This document shows positions 8,175 through 50,770 of a stretch of DNA of 64,000 bases, one piece after another. The position numbers were made by a program, and so were the translations under genes. The notes under the pieces are model-generated. The model saw only the letters and a list, made by a program, of their open reading frames with translations, did not search any database and was not told the DNA's origin. This stretch comes from Candidatus Peribacteria bacterium RIFOXYB1_FULL_54_35 (GTDB lineage Bacteria > Patescibacteriota > Gracilibacteria > Peribacterales > Peribacteraceae), in NCBI GenBank assembly GCA_001787755.1, contig MFYJ01000007.1, forward strand, positions 146,585 to 210,584, read 5' to 3'. Every line of letters begins with the position of its first letter. Position 1 is the first letter of the stretch.

Positions 8175-8271
8175 ATGTAGTATGTCGTATATTGTATGTG
8201 GTATGTGGGTTTTTCTTCTTGTCTTGCTCGTGGGATGTGGCCTACATACGACATTCCACATACGACATACC
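8175..8271. repeat. intergenic hairpin element with tandem heptamer arms (TATGTNG)
   Basis: Left arm ATGTAGTATGTCGTATATTGTATGTGGTATGTGGG. Right arm CCTACATACGACATTCCACATACGACATACC. It lies between divergent genes. Confidence 0.8.
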
Positions 8272-13033: not shown

Positions 13034-13156
13034 AGCTGTAGCTTGTAGTTGGTAGTTTGTAGGTTGTAGGAATGACAAGGCATCAAGGTTTAAAACCTCG
13101 TCCTTTGGAACCTTGGCAGTTCTTATGGATTTCCTACAAGCTACAACCTACAAGCT
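13034..13156. repeat. GTAGNTT-heptamer hairpin element, family copy 1 of 4
   Basis: Arms AGCTGTAGCTTGTAGTTGGTAGTTTGTAGGTTGTAGG and CCTACAAGCTACAACCTACAAGCT. The core AATGACAAGGCATCAAGGTTT...TCCTTTGGAACCTTGG is homologous to copy 3 in the opposite orientation. Confidence 0.9.
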
Positions 13157-13167
13157 CAAAGTAAAGG

Positions 13168-16100
13168 TCATGCGGTGCTCCTGAAGCGGCTGGCGAAGTA
13201 TTCCCGCGTGTTATCCTCTGTGAGCCATCCTTCCGCTTTATCTGCATAGTTCTCTTCCCGGAAGTGGTCCGCGAACTTCTTGAGGCATTTCTTCACGACG
13301 TCGGGTCTCTGCATGATGGTTTCCTGGAGTTGTCCCATGATGTCCCTCGCCTCTTCGTAACGGCTTTCCTGTTGTGTGGGGATGTACCGGGTCCTGTCGG
13401 ATTCTTCCAGGTGTTCCATGTTTTCTCTCCGGATGAGGTTGCCTGCGTTGATATGCGTGTAGCGGCTGAAGTCAAAGCCGCTCTCCTGCACAACATTGAA
13501 GACGAAGTCGTTCTGCGGCGTGCGGTACTTCGCCACGGTGAGATTGCTCGTGGAGGGGCCGGTGCCGTTGTCGATGTGGTCCCACGTGAGTACCGGGCGG
13601 TCGCCCTTGCTCGCGTTGCGCGTGAAGATGTTGTCCATGTGGATGTACGCGACAATCGCTTTGGCTGCCTCGTGCATGTCTCTGTCCGTGAATTGCGCGA
13701 CATTATCCTCCTCCATCTGGACCAGCCGCGCGAGCGCCTTGAACTTGGTGCCGAACCCCGTGTAGGAGTTGCGCACGGCTTCCGGGCTCAGTTTCTCGCG
13801 CGTGCCGCTCACCATACCTGTCATGCGGTCGATGTTCGTCCAGTCCGCCTGGGAGACGAGTGTCGGCACGTCCTCGTGGTCCAGGTTCTCCGCACGGACG
13901 CCGGAGATGGCCTTGGAAATACGCTCGCGCGTGCTCTCCACGCGCATGACTTCCAGATGGAGCCAGAGCGTTGTTTTGGGGCCGTAGTCGAAGGGTTTTC
14001 CGGGTTCCTCCAGCCTCTCGTTGAGCGCCTGTACTTCCGGGAGGGTGTTATTTTTCTTGTAGAAGTAGTCCAGCCACGGGTACCGGCTGAGAATGCCGCT
14101 CGTCTCGCCCGCCATGGTACGGAGCCGGTCGATGGAGAGCAGTCCCACTGCCACGCCCCTCACGAGGTAGAAGAGTTTGCCCTCCATGGTCATCTTCCCA
14201 TTGCGCATGGAGTAGTCGAGGATTTCTTCGTAGAGGTGGGGGTTCAAGTCCGTGGAGGCCCCGCGTCCGGTCCGCTTGTCTTCCCACAGTACGAGCTGGT
14301 TGATGAGTTCCCTCTCGAGTCCCCCCTGTATGTTCGAGAGCTGATCGACCATGGCAGTGAACTTTTCTTTACCGCTCTTCACCGCTCCGTCGTTCGCCTG
14401 CCGCCAGGTGGTGTAGAGGTCCTGGCCTCCCCAGATGTCGGAGATCAGCTTACGGAGCCATTTGTCCCGCAGCACGTCGTCGTTCCGGCAGGCGTGAATG
14501 GGCATGCTGAAATTGGAGAGGGCATTGAGCGTGTCCCACATCTTCTCGTTGCTCCACTCCATGCGGCCGCGGTCCGTGAGGAGCATGAATATCGCCTTGG
14601 CCTGGTCTTTATTGCGCACCTGCCCGAGCATTCTCAGCAGATAGTAGGAGGAGAAATCATCGAATTTTTCCTTCCATTCGTTCACTTCCTTCGTTTCTGA
14701 ATCCCGGTCCCTGCGCAGGAACTCATCCTGCAGCCTGCCGACGTAGGGCGTGTCCTTGGGAATGAGCTTGGTAATCGCGTAGCCCAGGGATGCCTGCTTG
14801 GAATCCCCTCGGCGGGTCCAGTAGCGGTTGAGGTCTTCCCATCCCTGCTTGAACATCCTCACCACGTCCATGATGCTCACGAAGTTGAAATCGTGGAAGA
14901 TGGCGCGCCAGTCCTTCTTCCCCCCGGCTCCCGCCTTGGAGATGCTCACCTTTTCCCCGCGGATGTTCTCCAGTTCTTTCAGCAGCGGATCGAGCTTGTT
15001 TTTGATGTACTTGATTGCCTGACTGACTCCTCCCGGCGTCGCCCTTCCTGCCTGGAATTCCTGCTGCACCATGCGGTGCGTCTGGTCGAAATTGTCGTAG
15101 ATCGGTCTGATGGTGTTCCCGTACTCCGGGAACGAGTCTGCGAAGACTCTCACTTTCTCTATTCCTCTCCGGAGGTCGATGAGTCCCGTATTGATGTCGA
15201 GCATGCCGGCTTCGGCAGATTCATCTCCGCCTCCATGTGGAGCGCCTGTGGTTCCGCCATCTCCGATACTCTCTCTTGAGAGGTACATCACGTCTGATTC
15301 TCCAATCTGTGCCTCACGGAGTACTCCTGTATCGATCTGTCGCAGCTCTTCGGGTTCCATTATTTCTTCAATGTGTTGATAGAGGGCAATTTGCTCAGGA
15401 TCAGTACTGTCTGTTGGCCGGCCCCTCTCCACCCAGAATGCGTACTGGTTGAGGAGCTCATCCATGAGGCGTTCCTGGTATCGCTCTTGGGCAAGCGCCT
15501 GAGCCTGCTCCTCGTTTCCGCCCGTTTCCCGGCGTGCCCGTTCAAGTATCATTTGCCATTTCTGTTCCACATGCCACTTTCTTGCCTGTTTCCCCAGGAG
15601 CTCACGAAATGTGTGTTCCTGACCGGGGAGCTGGTTTGCAGGGGTAGTGCCATCCAGTAATTCGCTGGTACGAATAAGGATTCCCTCAAAGAGGCCGGTT
15701 CTGCGCGTGAGTATGTCCACAATTATGTGTCCCTTCTCATGTTCTATGACATGGTCAACATTCAGGTTCCTTGCGGTAATCTGTTGCATATTGAGCACGA
15801 GTTGCCCTGTGTCACGGTTGTAGATGGCAATTTCGTCTGGGCTGTCTGAACCAAGTTCTACAAATTGTCCGGGAGTATCTGCCCGGACAATGTTTTCGGA
15901 CACCCCTCGCAAGAGTTCCTCTGCTTCTGTGAGGTGCTGCACCGTATCCTGCGCGCTCTTCAGGGATTCCGTTCCCTCCGCAGTCCCTTCACCCTTCTTC
16001 GCGGCCTGGAGATTGATGCGAACAGTTGTGTACTGTTCCAAGAGGCCGTCTTCTATGTGCAGTACGCGGCACACGGTGTGCCGGAGGACGGGGAGATCGG

Positions 16101-17850
16101 CAAACCGTGCCTTCACCTCTCCGTACTCACGCTGCACGCGCTCCCGCTCATCCTCCGTATTTTCCATCTGCATGGACTCAAATTGCTCGTCCGCCTGCTC
16201 GGCCCGTTGCCGGAAGGATGTGTTGCTCAGTGTGTAGCAGAGCATGTTGATGCGCTGCTTTCCCTGCCTGCCTGCCACTTCCTGTTCCAGGAGATCGAAG
16301 TCGTCGCCGGTGGCTGTGCCGGTGGCCACTCGTTCCAGTCTTTTGAGGAGAGTCTCCAGTTGCTCTACCGCTTCTGCCGGCATCTGCTGCACGAAGCGGG
16401 ATTCCCTGCTCTTCAGTGCCTGGAGTGTCCTCTCGATTTTTCCGGATTTCCAGAGGTGGGTCGCCCAGGCGACAGTATCCCGATGATCCAGTCTCGCACT
16501 CTCGATTGCCTGGCCGAGCAGATCTTCTCCTGCAATCTCTTCGAGCAGACTGTAGCTATCTTCGGCGAACCGTTCAAAACCGGGGCTCTCCGGGGATGGG
16601 GGAGAGAAGATGATGCTCTCCAGCGGTTCCAGTGCTGCGACAACGGCCCTGCCGCCGAGCAGCGCCTGGCTCGCGCCGAAGCGTTGCAATGCAGAGCTGC
16701 TGTCCACCCCATCAAACTGCTCCTCACACTGATGGAGCATTCTTTCCCTCACCAGCTGTGCACGCTCCCTCAAATCTTCCCGGACGACTGTGCGCATTTC
16801 AATGAGTTGCTTTTGCAGAATGGAAATCTGCTCATCAAGCGTCCTTGCCGCGAGTTCGTCCTCGTTCGCAGCTGGTGTGCTGCTGAGGAAGAGGTGGAGG
16901 AGCTTGCGCCTGCGCAGCCATTGCTTTGCGGCATCGAAGCTCCGTACCCAGTGCGTACGAGAGAGTTTTCCCTCCTGGTTTAAAACGGCATTCGGGTCGT
17001 CATCCGTCCCTGTGTACTCCTCGCGGATGCGCTGATTCAGACGGGCACGGAGACGATCGCCTTCCGGAACACCGGATGTATCGAAGCTCGCCTCTTCCGG
17101 CAGGGCATTCTCCCTTCCGGTGAGGAACTGCATCACGCTCTGAATTTTTGCTTTGTCTGGCTGAAAATCCGTGTATCGGCCAGAGAGCCAGTCGGAGAGC
17201 GTGGGGTCAGCAATGGTGAGACCGCGTTCCCTGCATTGATCTCTCAGCCACTGCTCGGTACCCCGGAGGCGGCCGATATCGATGCTTCCAAGGCGGAGCC
17301 CGGGATGCGTGTCATTCAGTGCTTCTTCAATGTCCTGCAGTTTCTGCAACTGCTTGTCGAGGGTATTCGTGAAGTGCAGGAACGCTTCGGGGCTGCGCAG
17401 ACGCTCCACGGCTGCGGCGCGCAGTGCACCTGCTGCGTCTTCGTGGTCGCGCAGGTACCACACGATTTCGTGCAGCGGCAGATCCGGCTGGTTCAGCTGA
17501 TCTCTGTAGTACTCTTCGTTCTCTCTCCGCATTCTCTCTTCCACCTGCCGGCGCAGATCACCGTGGTCATGTTCCAGCAATGCGATGAGTCCGGAGGGTT
17601 GCCTGAGCATCGCATCTATTCTCTCCGGCGCGAGGATGCGGGTATTGATGCCTACATTCACGTTTGCCGCTATTGCAGAAACATCCGCTCCCCCAGCATG
17701 GGAACCTTCTGCGCCCCTCCTCTCTCCCTCCGGTCTTCCTTCCACATTCTGGCTTCCGCTCCCGCCCCCGGTGCTTACGCCGAGCAGACGTCCCTCCCTT
17801 TCGGGGTTGAGTTTGCGTGCGAAGTGATCATGTGTGCTGAAGGACAGCAT
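13168..17850 (-). CDS. very large hypothetical protein (about 1,560 aa) with an HExxH motif
   Basis: Single long ORF, E/R/L-rich. HEKGH is encoded at 15727-15741. The ATG at 17850 lies 1 nt after the stop of the upstream gene (TAAcATG). Confidence 0.85.
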   Translation of the reverse strand: MLSFSTHDHFARKLNPEREGRLLGVSTGGGSGSQNVEGRPEGERRGAEGSHAGGADVSAIAANVNVGINTRILAPERIDAMLRQPSGLIALLEHDHGDLRRQVEERMRRENEEYYRDQLNQPDLPLHEIVWYLRDHEDAAGALRAAAVERLRSPEAFLHFTNTLDKQLQKLQDIEEALNDTHPGLRLGSIDIGRLRGTEQWLRDQCRERGLTIADPTLSDWLSGRYTDFQPDKAKIQSVMQFLTGRENALPEEASFDTSGVPEGDRLRARLNQRIREEYTGTDDDPNAVLNQEGKLSRTHWVRSFDAAKQWLRRRKLLHLFLSSTPAANEDELAARTLDEQISILQKQLIEMRTVVREDLRERAQLVRERMLHQCEEQFDGVDSSSALQRFGASQALLGGRAVVAALEPLESIIFSPPSPESPGFERFAEDSYSLLEEIAGEDLLGQAIESARLDHRDTVAWATHLWKSGKIERTLQALKSRESRFVQQMPAEAVEQLETLLKRLERVATGTATGDDFDLLEQEVAGRQGKQRINMLCYTLSNTSFRQRAEQADEQFESMQMENTEDERERVQREYGEVKARFADLPVLRHTVCRVLHIEDGLLEQYTTVRINLQAAKKGEGTAEGTESLKSAQDTVQHLTEAEELLRGVSENIVRADTPGQFVELGSDSPDEIAIYNRDTGQLVLNMQQITARNLNVDHVIEHEKGHIIVDILTRRTGLFEGILIRTSELLDGTTPANQLPGQEHTFRELLGKQARKWHVEQKWQMILERARRETGGNEEQAQALAQERYQERLMDELLNQYAFWVERGRPTDSTDPEQIALYQHIEEIMEPEELRQIDTGVLREAQIGESDVMYLSRESIGDGGTTGAPHGGGDESAEAGMLDINTGLIDLRRGIEKVRVFADSFPEYGNTIRPIYDNFDQTHRMVQQEFQAGRATPGGVSQAIKYIKNKLDPLLKELENIRGEKVSISKAGAGGKKDWRAIFHDFNFVSIMDVVRMFKQGWEDLNRYWTRRGDSKQASLGYAITKLIPKDTPYVGRLQDEFLRRDRDSETKEVNEWKEKFDDFSSYYLLRMLGQVRNKDQAKAIFMLLTDRGRMEWSNEKMWDTLNALSNFSMPIHACRNDDVLRDKWLRKLISDIWGGQDLYTTWRQANDGAVKSGKEKFTAMVDQLSNIQGGLERELINQLVLWEDKRTGRGASTDLNPHLYEEILDYSMRNGKMTMEGKLFYLVRGVAVGLLSIDRLRTMAGETSGILSRYPWLDYFYKKNNTLPEVQALNERLEEPGKPFDYGPKTTLWLHLEVMRVESTRERISKAISGVRAENLDHEDVPTLVSQADWTNIDRMTGMVSGTREKLSPEAVRNSYTGFGTKFKALARLVQMEEDNVAQFTDRDMHEAAKAIVAYIHMDNIFTRNASKGDRPVLTWDHIDNGTGPSTSNLTVAKYRTPQNDFVFNVVQESGFDFSRYTHINAGNLIRRENMEHLEESDRTRYIPTQQESRYEEARDIMGQLQETIMQRPDVVKKCLKKFADHFREENYADKAEGWLTEDNTREYFASRFRSTA

Positions 17851-17851
17851 G

Positions 17852-18322
17852 TTAAATTTTGCATATTCTAGAAATTTTGTCAAGTACCCGTTCCGTCCGG
17901 TCACTGTGTTCCGGAAGCTGTCTGCTGAGTACCTGCCTGATGTTGGCCATACTCACCGCTCCTGTCTGGATGATGAGGTCGTACCGCCACGCTTCTCTGT
18001 GCTCTATGTGGAGCTGCGTGTAGTCCGGGTAACGCTGGAACCAGAATCCAAGGAGGGTCTTCCAGGGGAAGAATTCGGAGTCGAGCTGCACCCCTTCTTC
18101 CAGGAGGTAGATGGTCTTCACCGTGGGTTCACGACGCAGCGAAAGGAAGTAGTACACGCATGTGGACATGATCATGAGAATGACGAGGCCCCACGAATCG
18201 CTCTTGAGACCGTAGAGGATCATGAGCAGGACGAACGTGATGGCGAGGATGTACCAGAGCGCTGATCGCTCGTGTTTTGGCCGCGTGCGTGCTCGCCAGG
18301 TGAGGAGGGGTTCGTGTTCCAT
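17852..18322 (-). CDS. small membrane protein (two predicted TM helices)
   Basis: 156 aa. Hydrophobic stretches ALWYILAITFVLLMILYGL and WGLVILMIMSTCVYYFL. Tightly coupled to the giant ORF downstream. Confidence 0.7.
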   Translation of the reverse strand: MEHEPLLTWRARTRPKHERSALWYILAITFVLLMILYGLKSDSWGLVILMIMSTCVYYFLSLRREPTVKTIYLLEEGVQLDSEFFPWKTLLGFWFQRYPDYTQLHIEHREAWRYDLIIQTGAVSMANIRQVLSRQLPEHSDRTERVLDKISRICKI

Positions 18323-18419: not shown

Positions 18420-18543
18420 GAAGTCAGTAGACAGAAGGGAGAAGCCAGTAGGCAGAAGTCAGAAGTCAGTACTGCCCATTGTTTTCCCGTTCAGGGTCTG
18501 AGGACCTCTCAGGTCTCGAACGACTGATTTCTGTCTTCTCGTC
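18420..18543. repeat. GWAGNCA-heptamer hairpin element (family with 21725 and 61093)
   Basis: Eight tandem heptamers GAAGTCA GTAGACA GAAGGGA GAAGCCA GTAGGCA GAAGTCA GAAGTCA GTACTGC. A short complementary arm CGACTGATTTCTGTCTTCTCGTC follows. Confidence 0.8.
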
Positions 18544-36363: not shown

Positions 36364-36708
36364 ATGACTTTCTCTCTGCAGACACTCCTCGAGCCCTGGT
36401 TCCTCTTTCTCGCGGATGATCCGACGCTCCGTCTCTTGCAGTTGGGCATGCTCCTTCTTGGAACCATCGTCATATTCCTCGTGTTCTTCGTCACGCGCGA
36501 TATCCTCCTGCGTACCGATTCATTCCTGTACATGTTCCTGTGCATCCTCCTGGCCGCCTTCCTCCCGGTGGTGGGATTTTTCCTCTACCTTCTCATCCGG
36601 CCGGCACGCACCATCAAGGAACGCGAGGTGGAAAAGATGCTCCGCAGTCTTCTCCAGAAAAACAAGATTGGGTGGGAGAAGGAGAAGAAAGATCGGAAGA
36701 ACAGTTGA
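36364..36708 (+). CDS. small membrane protein, PLDc_N-like
   Basis: 114 aa. LLAAFLPVVGFFLYLLIRP is typical of the phospholipase-D N-terminal-like domain. Confidence 0.65.
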   Translation: MTFSLQTLLEPWFLFLADDPTLRLLQLGMLLLGTIVIFLVFFVTRDILLRTDSFLYMFLCILLAAFLPVVGFFLYLLIRPARTIKEREVEKMLRSLLQKNKIGWEKEKKDRKNS

Positions 36709-36797
36709 AAATGGAAAATAAAAAATGGAAAATGAAAGGTGAGAGTTGATTGTTGCGTGGATCGATTTTCAATTTTCCGTTTTTCATTTATTATTTC
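36707..36797. repeat. hairpin element with GAAAATR heptamer arms
   Basis: GAAAATGGAAAATAAAAAATGGAAAATGAAAGG versus GATTTTCAATTTTCCGTTTTTCATTTATTATTTC. Confidence 0.75.
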
Positions 36798-37395: not shown

Positions 37396-38307
37396 ATGCG
37401 CTCTCTCACCTACAAGGACATTACATGGTATGACGACAGCAATCCTTCTGAGAAGGACCTTCTTGAATTGCAGAAGAAGTACGGGTTTCATGAGCTTGAT
37501 ATTGAGGACTGTCTGAGTCTTCATGAGCGGCCGAAAGTCGAGGAGTACGACGACTACATTTTCCTTGTGTTCCACATCCCGTACCTGCAGCAGCGCACAG
37601 GGCGTATTTTCAAAGAGGAGGTGAATATCTTTTTGGGGCAGCACTTCATTGCCACCCTCCACAAGGGGAATCTCCCCATCATCGATCGTCTCTGGGAGGA
37701 GGTGAATAAGTCGGAGGAGATGAAAGGGGAGTATCTCCAGTATGGTACGGGTTTCCTGCTCTACGAACTCATGAGCAAGTTTTTTGATGATGTGTTCCCG
37801 CTGGTGGACACCATTACCAGGCAGCTCCGTGAAATTGAAGACCGTCTCTTCGAGAGTGAGGAGCATGTGAATCTCCTCCGCGAGATCATGGCTCTCAAGA
37901 GAAACATCATTACCATGCGCAGTATTCTCCTCCCGCAGCGAACGCTTGTTGCGACGCTGGAGCACAAGAACAAGAAGTTTGTTTCGGAGGAACTGGCGCT
38001 CTACTTCGACGACATCCTCGATGCCATTGAGCGGCAGTGGTCGCTCCTGGATACGGACAAAGAACTCTGCGAGGCGCTCCAGGACACGCACGGATCATGG
38101 CTCAGTCACAAAACGAATGCAGTGGTGAAACTGCTGACGATCTTCTCGGTGACCATGCTCCCCCTCACGGTGATCACCGGTTTCTATGGCATGAACGTGG
38201 GTCTTCCTTTCCAGGCTGCGGAGCAAACGGCTCTCGGCATCATCATAGTGATGTTGGGCATTATTATCGTGATGATGGCGTATTTTGCAAAGAAGCACTG
38301 GCTCTGA
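37396..38307 (+). CDS. corA: magnesium/cobalt transporter CorA
   Basis: 303 aa. C-terminal two TM helices with the YGMNV signature. Confidence 0.9.
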   Translation: MRSLTYKDITWYDDSNPSEKDLLELQKKYGFHELDIEDCLSLHERPKVEEYDDYIFLVFHIPYLQQRTGRIFKEEVNIFLGQHFIATLHKGNLPIIDRLWEEVNKSEEMKGEYLQYGTGFLLYELMSKFFDDVFPLVDTITRQLREIEDRLFESEEHVNLLREIMALKRNIITMRSILLPQRTLVATLEHKNKKFVSEELALYFDDILDAIERQWSLLDTDKELCEALQDTHGSWLSHKTNAVVKLLTIFSVTMLPLTVITGFYGMNVGLPFQAAEQTALGIIIVMLGIIIVMMAYFAKKHWL

Positions 38308-38404
38308 GAGCTTGTAGCTTGTAGTTGGTAGCTTGTAGTGCTTTGATCGTCGATCCTTTGGATCTTGGATTTCCTACGTGCTACAACCTACAAACTACAA
38401 GCTC
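38308..38404. repeat. GTAGNTT-heptamer hairpin element, family copy 2
   Basis: GAGCTTGTAGCTTGTAGTTGGTAGCTTGTAGTG ... TTCCTACGTGCTACAACCTACAAACTACAAGCTC. Shortened core TCCTTTGGATCTTGGATTT. Confidence 0.9.
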
Positions 38405-38430: not shown

Positions 38431-39393
38431 ATGCTTCTTGACACATGGCCTGCTTTTCTAGAGGATATCCCTCCTATGCCGCTGAAGCACACGACTGAGA
38501 CACTGCTTGTCTTCCTCCTTGGCACTGCCACGGTGGTCACAGGCATCATCATTCCAAGCCTGACAGCACCGGACATGGGCATCGCCCCATGGGCCATTGT
38601 GTTCGTACTGGCCATTGCCTATCCGCTTGCTCTTTCCGGGCTCTTCCGGAGGAACAGGGCGGATTATGCGTTCCGTTTGCTCCACTGGATGCCTGCAATA
38701 CTTCTGCTGCTTCTCTTCCTCATGCAGGCAGGGATACGTACGCTTCCTTTCATAGCGTCGGTGCTGGACTGGTACACGTGGGGCTGGACTCTCCCGGGGG
38801 TGGCAACAGGATTTTTCCTGCTGGTGTACTTCTGCCTCCGCGTGATCCGCCGGTGGACGAAGAGGCTTGTGCTCCTTGTGGTTCTCTTCGTGCCGTTCAT
38901 GGTCGGTGCCGTTGCTTCTGAACACTACACAACCTGGAACCAGGAGATCGCTTCCGTGCTCTGGGAAGGGGAGTGGTGGAAGCTGGAAAAGGATGGTGCG
39001 GGCCTCGTAGCACAGGTGGATTCCCCCTCGGAGGAAGCATCGAGTGAGAAGAACCTCGAAGCGTCTGCCGATCCGGTGGAAGAGTCGTACCGTGAGAGGT
39101 TGCGAGCCATCGAGAACCGCCGCGAGCGCATTGCTGCCCGTCTGGAGGAGAGGCATGCGGGAGAAGAGGAATCGACGGGAGAGGAGGAGGGAGAAGAGTC
39201 TGAAGAAGCAGCGCCGGTTGTCGAGGAGGTGTCTTCTGCCGAAAGCGTTTCTATGCGCGAGGTCAGCAGCATGCCGAGCAGGCTCCCGAGTTCGGGATTG
39301 AGTTGGGCGGCCATCATTCTGACCATGCTTGGGCTCTACACTGCGACAGTGCATGCACGCACCCGAAAAAGGTCAGAAATGGTTGAGATTTGA
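38431..39393 (+). CDS. hypothetical polytopic membrane protein with acidic C-terminal region
   Basis: ATG at 38431 after the repeat. Multiple TM segments, then an E-rich region and a final TM. Confidence 0.6.
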   Translation: MLLDTWPAFLEDIPPMPLKHTTETLLVFLLGTATVVTGIIIPSLTAPDMGIAPWAIVFVLAIAYPLALSGLFRRNRADYAFRLLHWMPAILLLLLFLMQAGIRTLPFIASVLDWYTWGWTLPGVATGFFLLVYFCLRVIRRWTKRLVLLVVLFVPFMVGAVASEHYTTWNQEIASVLWEGEWWKLEKDGAGLVAQVDSPSEEASSEKNLEASADPVEESYRERLRAIENRRERIAARLEERHAGEEESTGEEEGEESEEAAPVVEEVSSAESVSMREVSSMPSRLPSSGLSWAAIILTMLGLYTATVHARTRKRSEMVEI

Positions 39394-39555
39394 GTATTTA
39401 GTATTGAGTATGGGCTTTGGAAATGAATCCTTGGCACTTGAGTACTTGAGTACTAGAATACTTGGATGCCTCAAGTGATCAAGTATTCAAATACTCAAGT
39501 ATTCTAGTATTCCAGTACTCAGGGGAAAAAATCAAAATACTCAATACTCCATACC
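39392..39555. repeat. nested hairpin element with (C)TTGAGTA/CTAGAATA octamer arms
   Basis: CACTTGAGTACTTGAGTACTAGAATACTTGG versus CAAGTATTCAAATACTCAAGTATTCTAGTATTCCAGTACTCAGG. The outer AGTATTGAGTAT arms also pair. Confidence 0.8.
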
Positions 39556-44106: not shown

Positions 44107-46371
44107 ATGCGCCTTGTGAAGGTGGCAAAAGCATTGGGTATGACCGGCCAGCAGCTCCGCAAAGAGCTTTCTGAGGTGGATTTCGGCGTCAAACCTACTG
44201 ACCGCGAGGTGCCGGATGGTCTTGCACAGGGTATTCTTCGGTACGTAGCACGGAAGAATGGCATAGAGGTCGATATGGATGCTATTGGTCTCTCTCTGGG
44301 AGAGGAGGAGGAGGAGAAGGAGGAAAGTCCTGGAGAGAAGAAGGAGGCAGTGCATCCTCCACAGGGGACTCCATTGGAGCAGGGGCAGGGAGAGGTTCCG
44401 AAGAAGACGGAATCTCTCAATGTTCTGCGTAAGCTCTCTCTCGACGATGTTCCAAAGGAGGCGATTGCAAAGCAGGCGGCGGAATTGAGGAAGCAGCAGC
44501 CAAGCAAGGAGGAACGCGAGGAGATGGAACGTGAAGAGAAAGCGATGGCACCCCACAAGAAAACTGCGACAGAGGGGAATCAGGAGCAGATTAAAGAGAA
44601 GGTGGGTGTCGTCGTTCTTCCATCGGAGGTGACGGTGAAGGAGTTTGCGGAGAAAACGGGTGTGCAGGTGCCGAGAGTTATCCAGACACTGATGAAGAAT
44701 GGTGTGATGGCAACGGTGAACCAGACAATCGACTACGAGACGGCTGCGGTCATCGCAGATGAATTGGGGGTGAAAGTGCAGAAGGAAGAAGCAGGTGCGA
44801 CTGTGGAGACGCTCCTTGCGAAAAATTTGGAGGGGCTGCTCAATGATGAGCCAGAGAACCTCCAGCCCCGCCCGCCGGTTGTGGTGGTCATGGGCCATGT
44901 TGACCATGGCAAGACTGCGATTCTCGATGCCATTCGTGAGACGGATGTCGTTTCCGGGGAGGCGGGTGGCATTACACAGCACATCGGTGCGTATCAGGTG
45001 GAGTTCCTCCCCTCCGGAACCAAGGAGATGAAATCCATTACCTTCCTCGACACCCCCGGGCACGAGGCATTCACGGCGATGCGCGCTCGTGGAGCACAGG
45101 TGACAGATATAGCGGTGATTGTTATTTCGGCGGAGGAGGGCGTGATGCCGACGACCGTGGAAGCCATCAACCATGCCAAGGAGGCAAAGGTGCCCGTTCT
45201 CGTTGCCATCAACAAGATCGATAAAGAGAATGCCAACGTTGAAAAGGTGATGGGAGAGCTCTCGGGGTGTGATCTGCAGCCGGAGGAGTGGGGGGGCAAG
45301 ACGCCAGTTGTGCGATGCAGCGCACTCACCAAGCAGGGCATTCAGGATCTTCTGGAGCATATTCTTCTCATTGCGGAACTTGCCGAGCTCAAAGCCAATC
45401 CCAATCGCCGCGCTGTTGCGACGGTTGTTGAGGGTCACCTCGATCCTGCACACGGTCCTCTTGCGACGGTGATCGTGAACGCGGGGACGCTGGTGATGGG
45501 CGATATCTACGTCTGTGGTACGACTATTGGACGTGTCCGTGTGATGATGGATGCCCATGGAAAGCGCCAGCAGAGTGTGCGGCCTTCCGGGGCAGTGCGT
45601 ATTTCCGGCTTCTCCCGCGTGCCACATGTGGGGGATATTCTGCAGGTTGTCTCTTCCGAGAAGGAGGCCCGGGATCTCCTGGGCCAGATGAAAGAGCACT
45701 ACGAGCGCAGGAAGAAGCGCAGCTTCGCAGATCTCGTTTCACGGCTTTCCGAAGGAAAGCTCACGCAGCTCAAGGTTGTGCTGAAGGCAGATACGCAGGG
45801 GTCACTGGAAGCGATAGAGTCCTCTCTCTCCAAATTGGCAACGGAGCAGGTGGTGGTGAAAGTCATCCACTCCGGTGTCGGTTCCGTGTCGGAGTCCGAT
45901 GTCATGATGGCTGCGGCGAGCGATGGAGTGGTGATTGCTTTCCATACGGCGGTGGGTCCTGATGTCGCGCGCACCGCAGACCGTGAGGGTGTGCAGGTGC
46001 GTGAATACGATGTGATCTATGCTCTTCTGGAAGATGTGGAGGGTCTTATTCAGGGGCTTGTGGAGCCGGAGGAGCAGGAGAAGATACTCGGCCACCTGGA
46101 AGTGAAGCAGGTGTTCCTCACCAAGAAGAGCGAACAGATTGTAGGTGGCAAGGTGACAGACGGGGTGGTGAAGCGTCTGCCGTTCCGACTCCTGCGTGGT
46201 GAGAAAGAGGTGGGGACCGGGCGCATCACTTCACTCAAGCATGTGGAGAAGGACATCAAAGAGGCGAAAGAGGGGAGTGAGTGCGGCATGCGGGTGGAAA
46301 CCTCTGTGCTGATTGAACCGGGTGACCGTTTGGAGGTTTTCCTCAAGGAGCTCAAGAAGAAGAAGTTCTAG
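44107..46371 (+). CDS. infB: translation initiation factor IF-2
   Basis: GTPase motifs [13 protein letters not shown] and NKID. Start set to ATG 44107 ([11 protein letters not shown]) because the track N-terminus overlaps the previous gene. Confidence 0.95.
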
Positions 46372-46379
46372 TACATTCT

Positions 46380-46504
46380 GAGGTTGTAGCTTGTAGGTTG
46401 TAGTTTGTAGGAAACCCAAAGAACTTCAGTTTCCAAGGTTCTAAAGGAGAAGTTCTGAAACCTCGGTGCTTTGTCATTCCTACAACCTACAAACTACAAT
46501 CTAG
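46380..46504. repeat. GTAGNTT-heptamer hairpin element, family copy 3 (inverted relative to copy 1)
   Basis: GAGGTTGTAGCTTGTAGGTTGTAGTTTGTAGGAA ... TTCCTACAACCTACAAACTACAATCTAG. The core is about 80% identical to copy 1 by eye. Confidence 0.9.
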
Positions 46505-50015: not shown

Positions 50016-50606
50016 ATGGCTTCCACTATCCTGAAAGCATTGTTTAGTTCGCAGACGAGAGTGAAACTCCTCTCGACGTTCCTCCTTCATCCAGAGGAGG
50101 AATACTACATCCGTGAACTCACGCGGCTGCTCCATGAACAGATCAACTCCATCCGCCGGGAGCTCGAGAACCTGCGCCGCATCGGACTTGTGCGTGCCAG
50201 ACACCGCAACAGGAAGAAGTACTACCGCATCGATTTGGAGTTTCCGCTCTTCCCGGAGCTCAAGAGCATGTTTGCCAAAGAGGTACAGGCAGACAGCCCC
50301 ATTGTGGCCAGTCTCAAGAAACTCCCGGGTGTCGATCTCATCGTCCTTGCTGGTGTGTTCGTCGGAACAGATACGAAAGTGGATCTCTTAGTTGTGGGAG
50401 ATGTGAAAAAGGAGATGCTCGAGGCGCTCCTTCTCCAGGATTCGAGTCTGAAGAACGTGAAGTACTCCATCTTCTCTCAGGCGGACTTCCTGTACCGCCT
50501 CAGCCTGAAGGATCGCTTCATCTCCGACATTCTCAGCGATCCCCGCAATTTGAATGTGCACAACGTCATTCAAAAGCAGATAGATGAGGCGAAAGGAAAG
50601 CAGTGA
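50016..50606 (+). CDS. winged-helix (ArsR-like) transcriptional regulator family protein
   Basis: RVKLLSTFLLHPEEEYYIRELTRLLHEQINSIRRELENLRRIGLV. Start set to ATG 50016. Confidence 0.7.
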   Translation: MASTILKALFSSQTRVKLLSTFLLHPEEEYYIRELTRLLHEQINSIRRELENLRRIGLVRARHRNRKKYYRIDLEFPLFPELKSMFAKEVQADSPIVASLKKLPGVDLIVLAGVFVGTDTKVDLLVVGDVKKEMLEALLLQDSSLKNVKYSIFSQADFLYRLSLKDRFISDILSDPRNLNVHNVIQKQIDEAKGKQ

Positions 50607-50610
50607 GAGA

Positions 50611-50705
50611 GATTGTAGTTTGTAGATGGTAGCTTGTAGAGTGTAGGAGATTGGACTCGAGGATCTCATTTTTGCTTCTACAAGCTACAAACTACAAGCT
50701 ACAGA
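50611..50705. repeat. GTAGNTT-heptamer hairpin element, family copy 4
   Basis: GATTGTAGTTTGTAGATGGTAGCTTGTAGAGTGTAGGA ... TCTACAAGCTACAAACTACAAGCTACAG. The core differs from the other copies. Confidence 0.85.
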
Positions 50706-50770
50706 TTCCCCGGGGACATCCCTACTTTTTGCTTTACAGGGCCCGTGCTGCTCGGTAGTCTCCTTCGGCT

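Follow-up and report, generated by a model that had tools for sequence, protein, structure and literature searches.

Heptamer-armed hairpins behind genes of a Candidatus Peribacteria genome as probable gene-less relatives of PF05635 stem-loop cassettes

The stretch of DNA analysed here, the window, covers 64,000 nucleotides (C7:146585-210584) of a Candidatus Peribacteria genome from the Candidate Phyla Radiation (CPR), a 1.56-Mb, 98%-complete assembly of 16 contigs with 55% G+C that we call G000. Between its protein-coding genes lie four hairpin elements, copies 1 to 4, which adjoin a 1578-aa gene, corA, infB and a 245-aa gene, respectively. Each consists of an array of the heptamer GTAGNTT, a loop and the inverse array, and all four occur at the coordinates given in a preliminary description made from the sequence alone, which had proposed a dispersed, mobile family resembling MITEs (miniature inverted-repeat transposable elements) or repetitive extragenic palindromic (REP) sequences. 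Our best reading is that the elements are gene-less relatives of selfish stem-loop cassettes of the intervening-sequence type, MITE-like in outline and neither classical MITE nor REP. More specifically, they probably belong to a family of heptamer-armed stem-loops whose gene-bearing form is a cassette of ~570 bp that encodes a PF05635 protein. Judged by its profile matches, this protein is of the type called ‘23S rRNA intervening-sequence protein’ (S23p, a TIGR02436 four-helix bundle, distantly Avd-like).

The layout of the elements is (AGNTTGT)n AG(G), loop, C(C)T (ACAANCT)n, where the left array counts 3-5 units and the right array 2-4. The 11-mer GTAGNTTGTAG occurs 19 times in the window, where 0.03 occurrences are expected, and all 19 fall within the four elements. 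As RNA, either strand of the four copies folds at -42.5 to -47.7 kcal/mol (z-scores -4.6 to -7.6), and no shuffle folded as well as the element (0/200 for each copy). An Rfam search of the window at gathering thresholds returned four tRNAs only, and nothing at the elements.

The family is not confined to the window. A census of the genome located ~30 GTAG-anchored period-7 loci on seven contigs, consistent with the dispersed family that had been proposed, and 23 of these loci are array-loop-inverse-array hairpins 62-152 nt long. Stringently defined period-7 regions number 91 in the genome and 0 in shuffles, and periods 8-11 give 1-5 regions each. With an unbiased rule (any 4-mer occurring three times at 7-nt spacing) we counted 175 period-7 loci versus ~24 by chance, and GTAG was the commonest anchor (29 loci). 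Heptamer words in the genome fall into at least seven families, of which GTAGNTT is the largest; the others include GTATGTN, TAGCGNN/GCTAACC, GGAAAAT, GAAGNCA, GCTGAAA, TTAGCTN, GGGTTAG and GAGGAAA. Within its genus, G000 carries the most GTAGNTT copies.

Some members depart from the standard form. An ‘inside-out’ member at C7:247023-247078 begins with a CTACAAN array, followed by a 6-nt loop and then a GTAGNTT array, and lies between the two halves of an outer inverted pair, TTAGGATT...AATCCTAG. Nested elements occur at C7:249690-249900 and C7:250640-250900, with outer GGGTTAG-type arms and a loop that holds a TTTGGATTT motif and an AGCTTTN array. Arrays of other words (GTATGTN, GAAGNCA, GGAAAAT and TTGAGTA-like) are also found in the window, at 8180-8208, 18440-18473, 36707-36734 and 39383-39411 (converted from C7 coordinates).

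The link to a gene comes from the PF05635 cassettes. A profile search identified seven PF05635 (S23p/Avd-like) genes in G000, and 7/7 are bracketed by inverted heptamer arrays that start at the upstream gene's stop codon. Each cassette uses a word of its own: GTATGTN, TTAGCTN, GTAGNTT, AATAGNN, GGGTTAG, TAGGGNN or GAGGAAA. The GTAGNTT cassette encodes, at C12:205452-205814, a 120-aa protein with matches to both PF05635 (E 1e-34) and TIGR02436; its resemblance to Avd is weak and below threshold. Six of the seven cassettes have arms that also occur at dispersed gene-less hairpin loci; the cassette interiors do not recur. Copy 4 and the GTAGNTT cassette have the same nine bases, GGAGATTGG, right after the left arm, anchored at the arm boundary. 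Across a sample of the class, PF05635 is present in 72 of 121 genomes, in up to 17 copies. Under a strict test, 13 of 28 sampled PF05635 loci are bracketed by inverted period-7 arms, with about five more borderline, versus 7 of 1174 genes of G000 in the control.

The GTAGNTT cassette and the parts of the four window copies are as follows (window coordinates for the copies).

C12:205293-205858: GTAGNTT-armed PF05635 cassette of ~570 bp, with arms at 205293-205317 and 205841-205858.
13034-13070, plus strand: copy 1, left array, AGCT GTAGCTT GTAGTTG GTAGTTT GTAGGTT GTAGG.
13071-13132, minus strand: copy 1, loop with the long core, reading GGAAATCCATAAG...CCTTGTCATTCC on the minus strand and homologous to the core of copy 3.
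13133-13156, plus strand: copy 1, inverse array, CCTACAA GCTACAA CCTACAA GCT, ending 11 nt short of the stop (13168) of the 1578-aa minus-strand gene.
38308-38338, plus strand: copy 2, left GTAGNTT array, starting 1 nt past the corA stop codon (38305-38307).
38339-38372, minus strand: copy 2, loop, opening on the minus strand with GGAAATCCAAGATCCAAAGGATCG.
38373-38404, plus strand: copy 2, inverse array, CCTACGTGCTACAACCTACAAACTACAAGCTC.
46380-46411, plus strand: copy 3, left GTAGNTT array, 8 nt past the infB stop codon (46369-46371).
46412-46478, plus strand: copy 3, loop with the long core; the start motif GGAAACCCAAAG runs from 46410, which belongs to the last unit of the arm, and ...GCTTTGTCATT closes the core.
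46479-46504, plus strand: copy 3, inverse array, ending 11 nt short of the stop (46516) of a convergent 456-aa gene.
50611-50647, plus strand: copy 4, left GTAGNTT array, 4 nt past the stop of the 245-aa gene (50604-50606).
50648-50677, plus strand: copy 4, loop, opening with the nine bases given above if the last arm G (50647) is counted.
50678-50705, plus strand: copy 4, inverse array, followed ~65 nt downstream by the rplS start codon, with a conserved CTACTTTTTGCTTTACAGG box in between.

The distances to stop codons agree with those reported earlier, and the spurious N-termini of the YKLQ type are indeed seen in the lists of open reading frames (ORFs).

Copies 1 and 3 had been described as sharing a core in opposite orientation, and a formal alignment shows this similarity to be significant (119 nt aligned, 82% identity, E 7.5e-26), with a core of ~70 nt. 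Beyond the window, the long core occurs a third time, at C7:296585-296719 (79%, E 6e-22). As a hallmark of the family the core was rejected: nhmmer recovered the three copies and one weak partial match only. The suggestion that copy 2 carries a deletion version of this core is plausible, but the resemblance is weak and does not go beyond the loop start GGAAATCCAAG and a stretch of AAAGGA. The loop of copy 4 is a different one, as had been noted. The only general loop feature is the 10-12-nt loop start, GGAAATCCAAAG, which is common to many loops regardless of arm word. Its form AAATCCAA[AG] occurs 63 times in the genome, ~32 of them in heptamer-hairpin loops (a hand count from the listing). 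The motif usually adjoins one arm as G[GA]AAATCCAAAG, and does so with the arm words GTAGNTT, GTATGTN, AGCTNNN/TTAGCTN, GGGTTAG and GAGGAAA. We considered an orientation rule for the motif relative to transcription and discarded it, as tandem junctions gave 2 sense and 5 antisense cases and orientations are mixed within one replication arm.

The arms, previously described as complementary, are not truly so at their N positions. Arm-to-arm agreement at variable units is 17/44 within elements versus 17.4 ± 2.4 between elements, and Watson-Crick pairs make up 13 of the 49 N pairs of the innermost register (14.5 expected). The absent covariation rules out selection for pairing at N as well as the idea that one arm was copied from the other. 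The stem is therefore a series of 6-bp helices with frequent 1x1 mismatches. Nor are the arms faithful copies of a master: they are degenerate arrays that differ between copies, in which a few unit variants recur (NTT, NTG, TGA, ATG and CCG).

All copies lie between protein-coding genes and none within a 23S rRNA helix. By junction type, the 23 paired elements comprise 9 tandem, 9 convergent and 5 divergent cases. Stop codons are touched by 18 of the 23, all but one of these at -11 to +18 nt, and in seven cases the host stop codon lies inside an element arm, so that the arm supplies the stop. At 8 of the 9 tandem junctions the element sits close behind the upstream stop and leaves 50-75 nt before the next start; at divergent junctions there are likewise 50-75 nt between element and next start. 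Since 7 shares no factor with 3, a run of three GTAGNTT units puts a TAG into each of the three frames; on the opposite strand the inverse array has this effect. The elements may be selfish DNA that lodges at or over gene ends, where heptamers with TAG in every frame would render insertion at a stop codon harmless; insertion there may be tolerated because the arms carry stop codons in all frames. Co-transcription with the host gene would then allow the 25-35-bp stem to form. By analogy with S23p intervening sequences in rRNA, the stem would probably be cut by RNase III, in which case the element would mark or process transcript ends. G000 encodes RNase III at C10:13083-13466.

Comparison with a sister species in the genus, G003, indicates rapid turnover. 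Flanking genes are 90-98% identical, and nearly the whole genome could be compared site by site; the G003 assembly is fragmented and 80% complete. At 21 comparable GTAGNTT loci, G003 keeps the element in 4, has a remnant of 2.5 units in 1, carries another word or hairpin in 11 and lacks the element in 5, where a short unrelated spacer is found. Among the 4 kept loci, the one at C2:22001 differs by an indel of 14 nt, or two units, and its loop has diverged; another has other N letters. At the sites of copies 3 and 4, G003 has GGTTAGG-type arms, and at the C13:10549 site it has AGCTNNC arms with an identical loop start, AGGAAATCCAAAG. At the sites of copies 3 and 4, congeners at a greater distance (73-77% identity) are devoid of heptamer elements; one such relative has a plain hairpin at the copy 4 site. 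At the other extreme, copies 2 and 3 are base-identical in three assemblies with identical CorA, and GCA_001789085.1 carries an identical stretch. This identity rules out the behaviour of a hypervariable, phase-variation-like simple sequence repeat. Replacement at the species level and identity at the strain level together imply that turnover is fast between species and not of the simple-sequence-repeat kind within a population. A solo four-unit array at C7:62937-62975 corresponds to an array of the same length in G003 (C49:4491-4550), GAAGGCA-type in one and GGAAGCG-type in the other; the flanks are almost identical, so the word was replaced in place.

Clean boundaries are seen for two whole cassettes that are present in G000 and absent from G003 exactly between stop codons. 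The flanks of the empty sites are 17 and 43 nt apart, and at one of these sites the convergent stops abut. The GGGTTAG cassette of G000 (C12:53250-53705) corresponds to a G003 element (C46:2343-2503) that is missing ~330 nt of ORF but retains the arms and the two interior ends. From this alignment, the G003 element is a miniature produced by internal deletion at the orthologous locus. At the site of the GTAGNTT cassette, G003 has outer GGGTTAG arms that enclose decayed GTAGNTT units, with the same right boundary.

Related hairpins occur beyond the genus. The 20-mer GTAGNTTGTAGGAAAYCCAA was scanned in one genome per species, a search in which ~9 chance matches are expected, and gave 7 matches. 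Four are true heptamer-armed hairpins with the GTAGNTT arm-loop junction: one in G003, two loci in a Chloroflexia metagenome-assembled genome (MAG) and one in a Pyrinomonadaceae MAG (Acidobacteriota). The matches in Anaerolineales, Wolbachia and Leptospirales look like chance and were discarded. GTAG-N3 triples number 91 in the Chloroflexia MAG (0 in the control), with the same unit variants as in G000, and 1084 in the Pyrinomonadaceae MAG (200 in the control). In both MAGs, PF05635 genes are likewise bracketed by inverted heptamer arrays. In the Pyrinomonadaceae MAG (DASVQJ01, 7.7 Mb) the matches to these triples are mostly CAGTAGN arrays in inverted pairs ~70-80 nt apart, and its heptamer load is far above that of G000.

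Several observations weigh against regarding the hairpins and cassettes as one family. Apart from copy 4 and the G003 miniature, short copies bear no relation to cassettes in their interiors. No mobility mechanism was found, and PF05635 is not known as a recombinase. Alignments of occupied and unoccupied sites between G000 and G003 revealed no target-site duplication and, for the short copies, no clean empty site, the entire spacers being different; between the two species, elements are present, absent or replaced, and the boundaries of the short copies are not clean. G003 has many heptamer hairpins and no detectable PF05635 gene in its fragmented, 80%-complete assembly. The words that abound in the Chloroflexia and Acidobacteriota MAGs are not those on the PF05635 cassettes found there, and across genomes, at ≤50% identity, related PF05635 proteins do not come with related words. 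Finally, gene positions derive from a crude in-house caller based on ORFs and codon usage, with sound stops and unreliable starts.

A bolder version of the family reading is that heptamer hairpins and PF05635 cassettes are two forms of one undescribed, self-propagating class that spans phyla, in which a multimeric PF05635 protein would recognise, or help to write, the arms of 7-nt periodicity. We hold this only tentatively and consider it rather doubtful. Should it be correct, the heptamers of cyanobacteria, Xanthomonas, CPR bacteria, Chloroflexi and Acidobacteria would have a common origin with rRNA intervening sequences.

The strongest rival explanation, though an unlikely one, is that the hairpins arose in situ and are selected by the host as transcript-end structures (terminators or 3' stabilisers), growing by 7-nt slippage and intrastrand template switching, with shared words due to mutational bias or gene conversion. 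Their location directly behind stops, their filling of convergent junctions, their strong stems, the differences in unit number between orthologues such as the 14-nt indel, and the plain hairpin of the more distant relative would all follow. However, the terminator scan called no element as a whole, and no T run that would give a U tract follows the right arm; a weak match was limited to a small inner hairpin of copy 2. Counts from the promoter and terminator scans are near the shuffle level, and the arms yield only weak -10-like TACAAN matches. Five of the 23 elements lie between divergent starts, and correction by template switching would enforce arm covariation at N, which is absent. In addition, word, unit variants and loop start recur at ~30 loci and in other phyla, the arms are common to entire gene cassettes, and the identity in three near-identical strains argues that slippage is not fast.

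A REP-like origin, with mobilisation in trans by a REP-associated tyrosine transposase (RAYT), GTAG as the recognition head and subsequent loss of the RAYT gene from G000, appears improbable. Many bacterial REPs begin with GTAG(G), for example Coxiella REP GTAGGTTGGGC... (PMC2817692), and, as in bacterial interspersed mosaic elements (BIMEs), the elements here are extragenic inverted pairs around a central motif, behind genes (PMC2817692). G003 moreover encodes a RAYT (C19:8243-8728; NF047646 88 bits with a cut-off of 80, PF01797 E 2.6e-7) that starts 2 nt past a stop, exactly where G000 has a PF05635 cassette (C11:154365-154830). Yet the visible sides of this gene have no flanking GTAGNTT arrays, and profile searches of 98%-complete G000, the genome with most GTAGNTT copies in its genus, gave 0 matches to PF01797 (RAYT/IS200) and 0 to PF00078 (reverse transcriptase). 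The REP-like nature proposed in the preliminary description therefore finds no RAYT or IS200-type gene in the genome to support it. Most other word families lack GTAG, copy number is lower (~30), and the arms are tandem arrays where a REP has a single imperfect palindrome of 20-40 nt; a GTAG head is present but repeated every 7 nt, in elements of 62-152 nt.

No better supported, in our view, is the idea that the arrays are primarily binding sites of an oligomeric ring protein, perhaps a pentameric PF05635 protein reading 4-5 UAG-N4 units, with the hairpin secondary and a protein-or-hairpin switch governing read-through. HutP, which reads UAG-N4 repeats, and TRAP are models for such a protein. 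The strict period of 7, the 3-5 units per array, the six fixed positions with one free and no covariation between arms, the prevalence (by eye) of TAG-containing words among cassette arms, and the non-complementary or nested arrays at some loci would suit it. It is harder to reconcile with several unrelated words in one genome, with other words at the same site in the sister species, with the lack of any correspondence found between protein and word, and with the failure to detect PF05635 in G003.

A classical MITE, in the sense of an element derived by deletion from a DDE-type insertion sequence and carrying terminal inverted repeats and target-site duplications, has the inverted termini, the small size, the dispersed intergenic copies and the presence or absence between species on its side, but is hardly credible given no visible target-site duplication, degenerate tandem arms that differ between copies and a sole longer relative that encodes PF05635 and no transposase. 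The earlier proposal of a mobile MITE-like family is borne out by the existence of a larger relative that carries a gene between the same arms, but not by the nature of that gene, which encodes a PF05635 four-helix bundle and no known transposase. No transposase parent came to light: the longer relative matches PF05635/TIGR02436, and the searches covered PF01797 and PF00078 (other transposase families were not searched).

The reading of the elements as gene-less relatives of intervening-sequence cassettes draws on their parallels with S23p elements, which have been called selfish since 1993, without a mechanism. In Coxiella, the intervening sequence that encodes S23p is described as selfish; RNase III cuts its 28-bp terminal stem at mid-stem, and it contains 2-3 tandem heptamers whose number varies between strains (PMC4990558). 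Like the intervening sequences of Coxiella burnetii and Leptospira, the elements described here are stem-loops with long terminal inverted repeats and a stem of at least ~25 bp; the GTAGNTT cassette and six others enclose a PF05635 ORF; the distribution is sporadic, suggesting horizontal spread; and the host has RNase III. Unlike them, they occur behind protein-coding genes rather than within rRNA helices, most of them, among which are the four window copies (loops of 30-67 nt), have no ORF, and the arms are heptamer arrays with a degenerate position, in many word families per genome.

Heptamer repeats themselves are familiar from cyanobacteria, where short tandemly repeated repetitive (STRR) sequences have been known since 1990. 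To our knowledge, tandem heptamers behind bacterial genes have been catalogued without an origin or function, and in literature of limited coverage we found no paper on such repeats in Peregrinibacteria. The GGGAATC and GGGGA(C/T)T heptamers of Xanthomonas and Nostoc have degenerate positions and mostly ~4 units (Rehm et al. 2015, PMC4692102), and form 70-75 convergent inverted pairs per genome, intergenic and <50 bp from stops, with unknown function (PMC4692102). The GTAGNTT elements share the tandem degenerate 7-nt units, the inverted pairing, the intergenic position and the location within 50 bp of stops. They differ in lacking G runs and G-quadruplex potential and in that several unrelated words coexist in one small genome. 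The conserved loop motif and the PF05635 link seen here are not reported for the Xanthomonas and Nostoc heptamers, which look like the same kind of thing minus the gene link.

Parallels with bacterial MITEs such as the Correia elements of Neisseria are also apparent, as both are small, non-coding, dispersed and bounded by inverted repeats. Correia elements are transcribed with neighbouring genes, as is predicted here. RNA stems of Correia elements are substrates of RNase III. Terminal inverted repeats (GTAGNTT / AANCTAC) are present on every copy, as degenerate arrays rather than fixed sequences. In contrast to Correia-type MITEs, there is no target-site duplication or transposase-encoding parent, and the termini are not faithfully copied.

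G000 thus brings heptamer repeats and S23p elements together, with each PF05635 gene placed within a heptamer-armed stem, and may tie unexplained 7-base repeats of bacteria to a selfish PF05635 cassette that occurs in several phyla. This raises the questions of whether PF05635 proteins bind the arrays, whether RNase III cuts the stems and how one word comes to replace another at a fixed site. In practical terms, the elements give rise to spurious ORF starts, seen as the YKLQ peptides, and cause breaks in assembled CPR genomes.

A few minor features of the window adjoin the elements. The 1578-aa ORF directly upstream of copy 1 (13168-17904, minus strand) has no assigned family. A sigma-70-like match (TTGTCA, 18 nt, TACAAT; 10/12) at 46471-46500 spans the core end and right arm of copy 3 and is directed into the 3' end of the convergent gene; the inverse arm generally reads TACAAN, in which N=T is rare (2/49). 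The CTACTTTTTGCTTTACAGG box between copy 4 and rplS (50722-50740) is kept in three congeners whatever the remaining spacer, and is possibly the rplS promoter.

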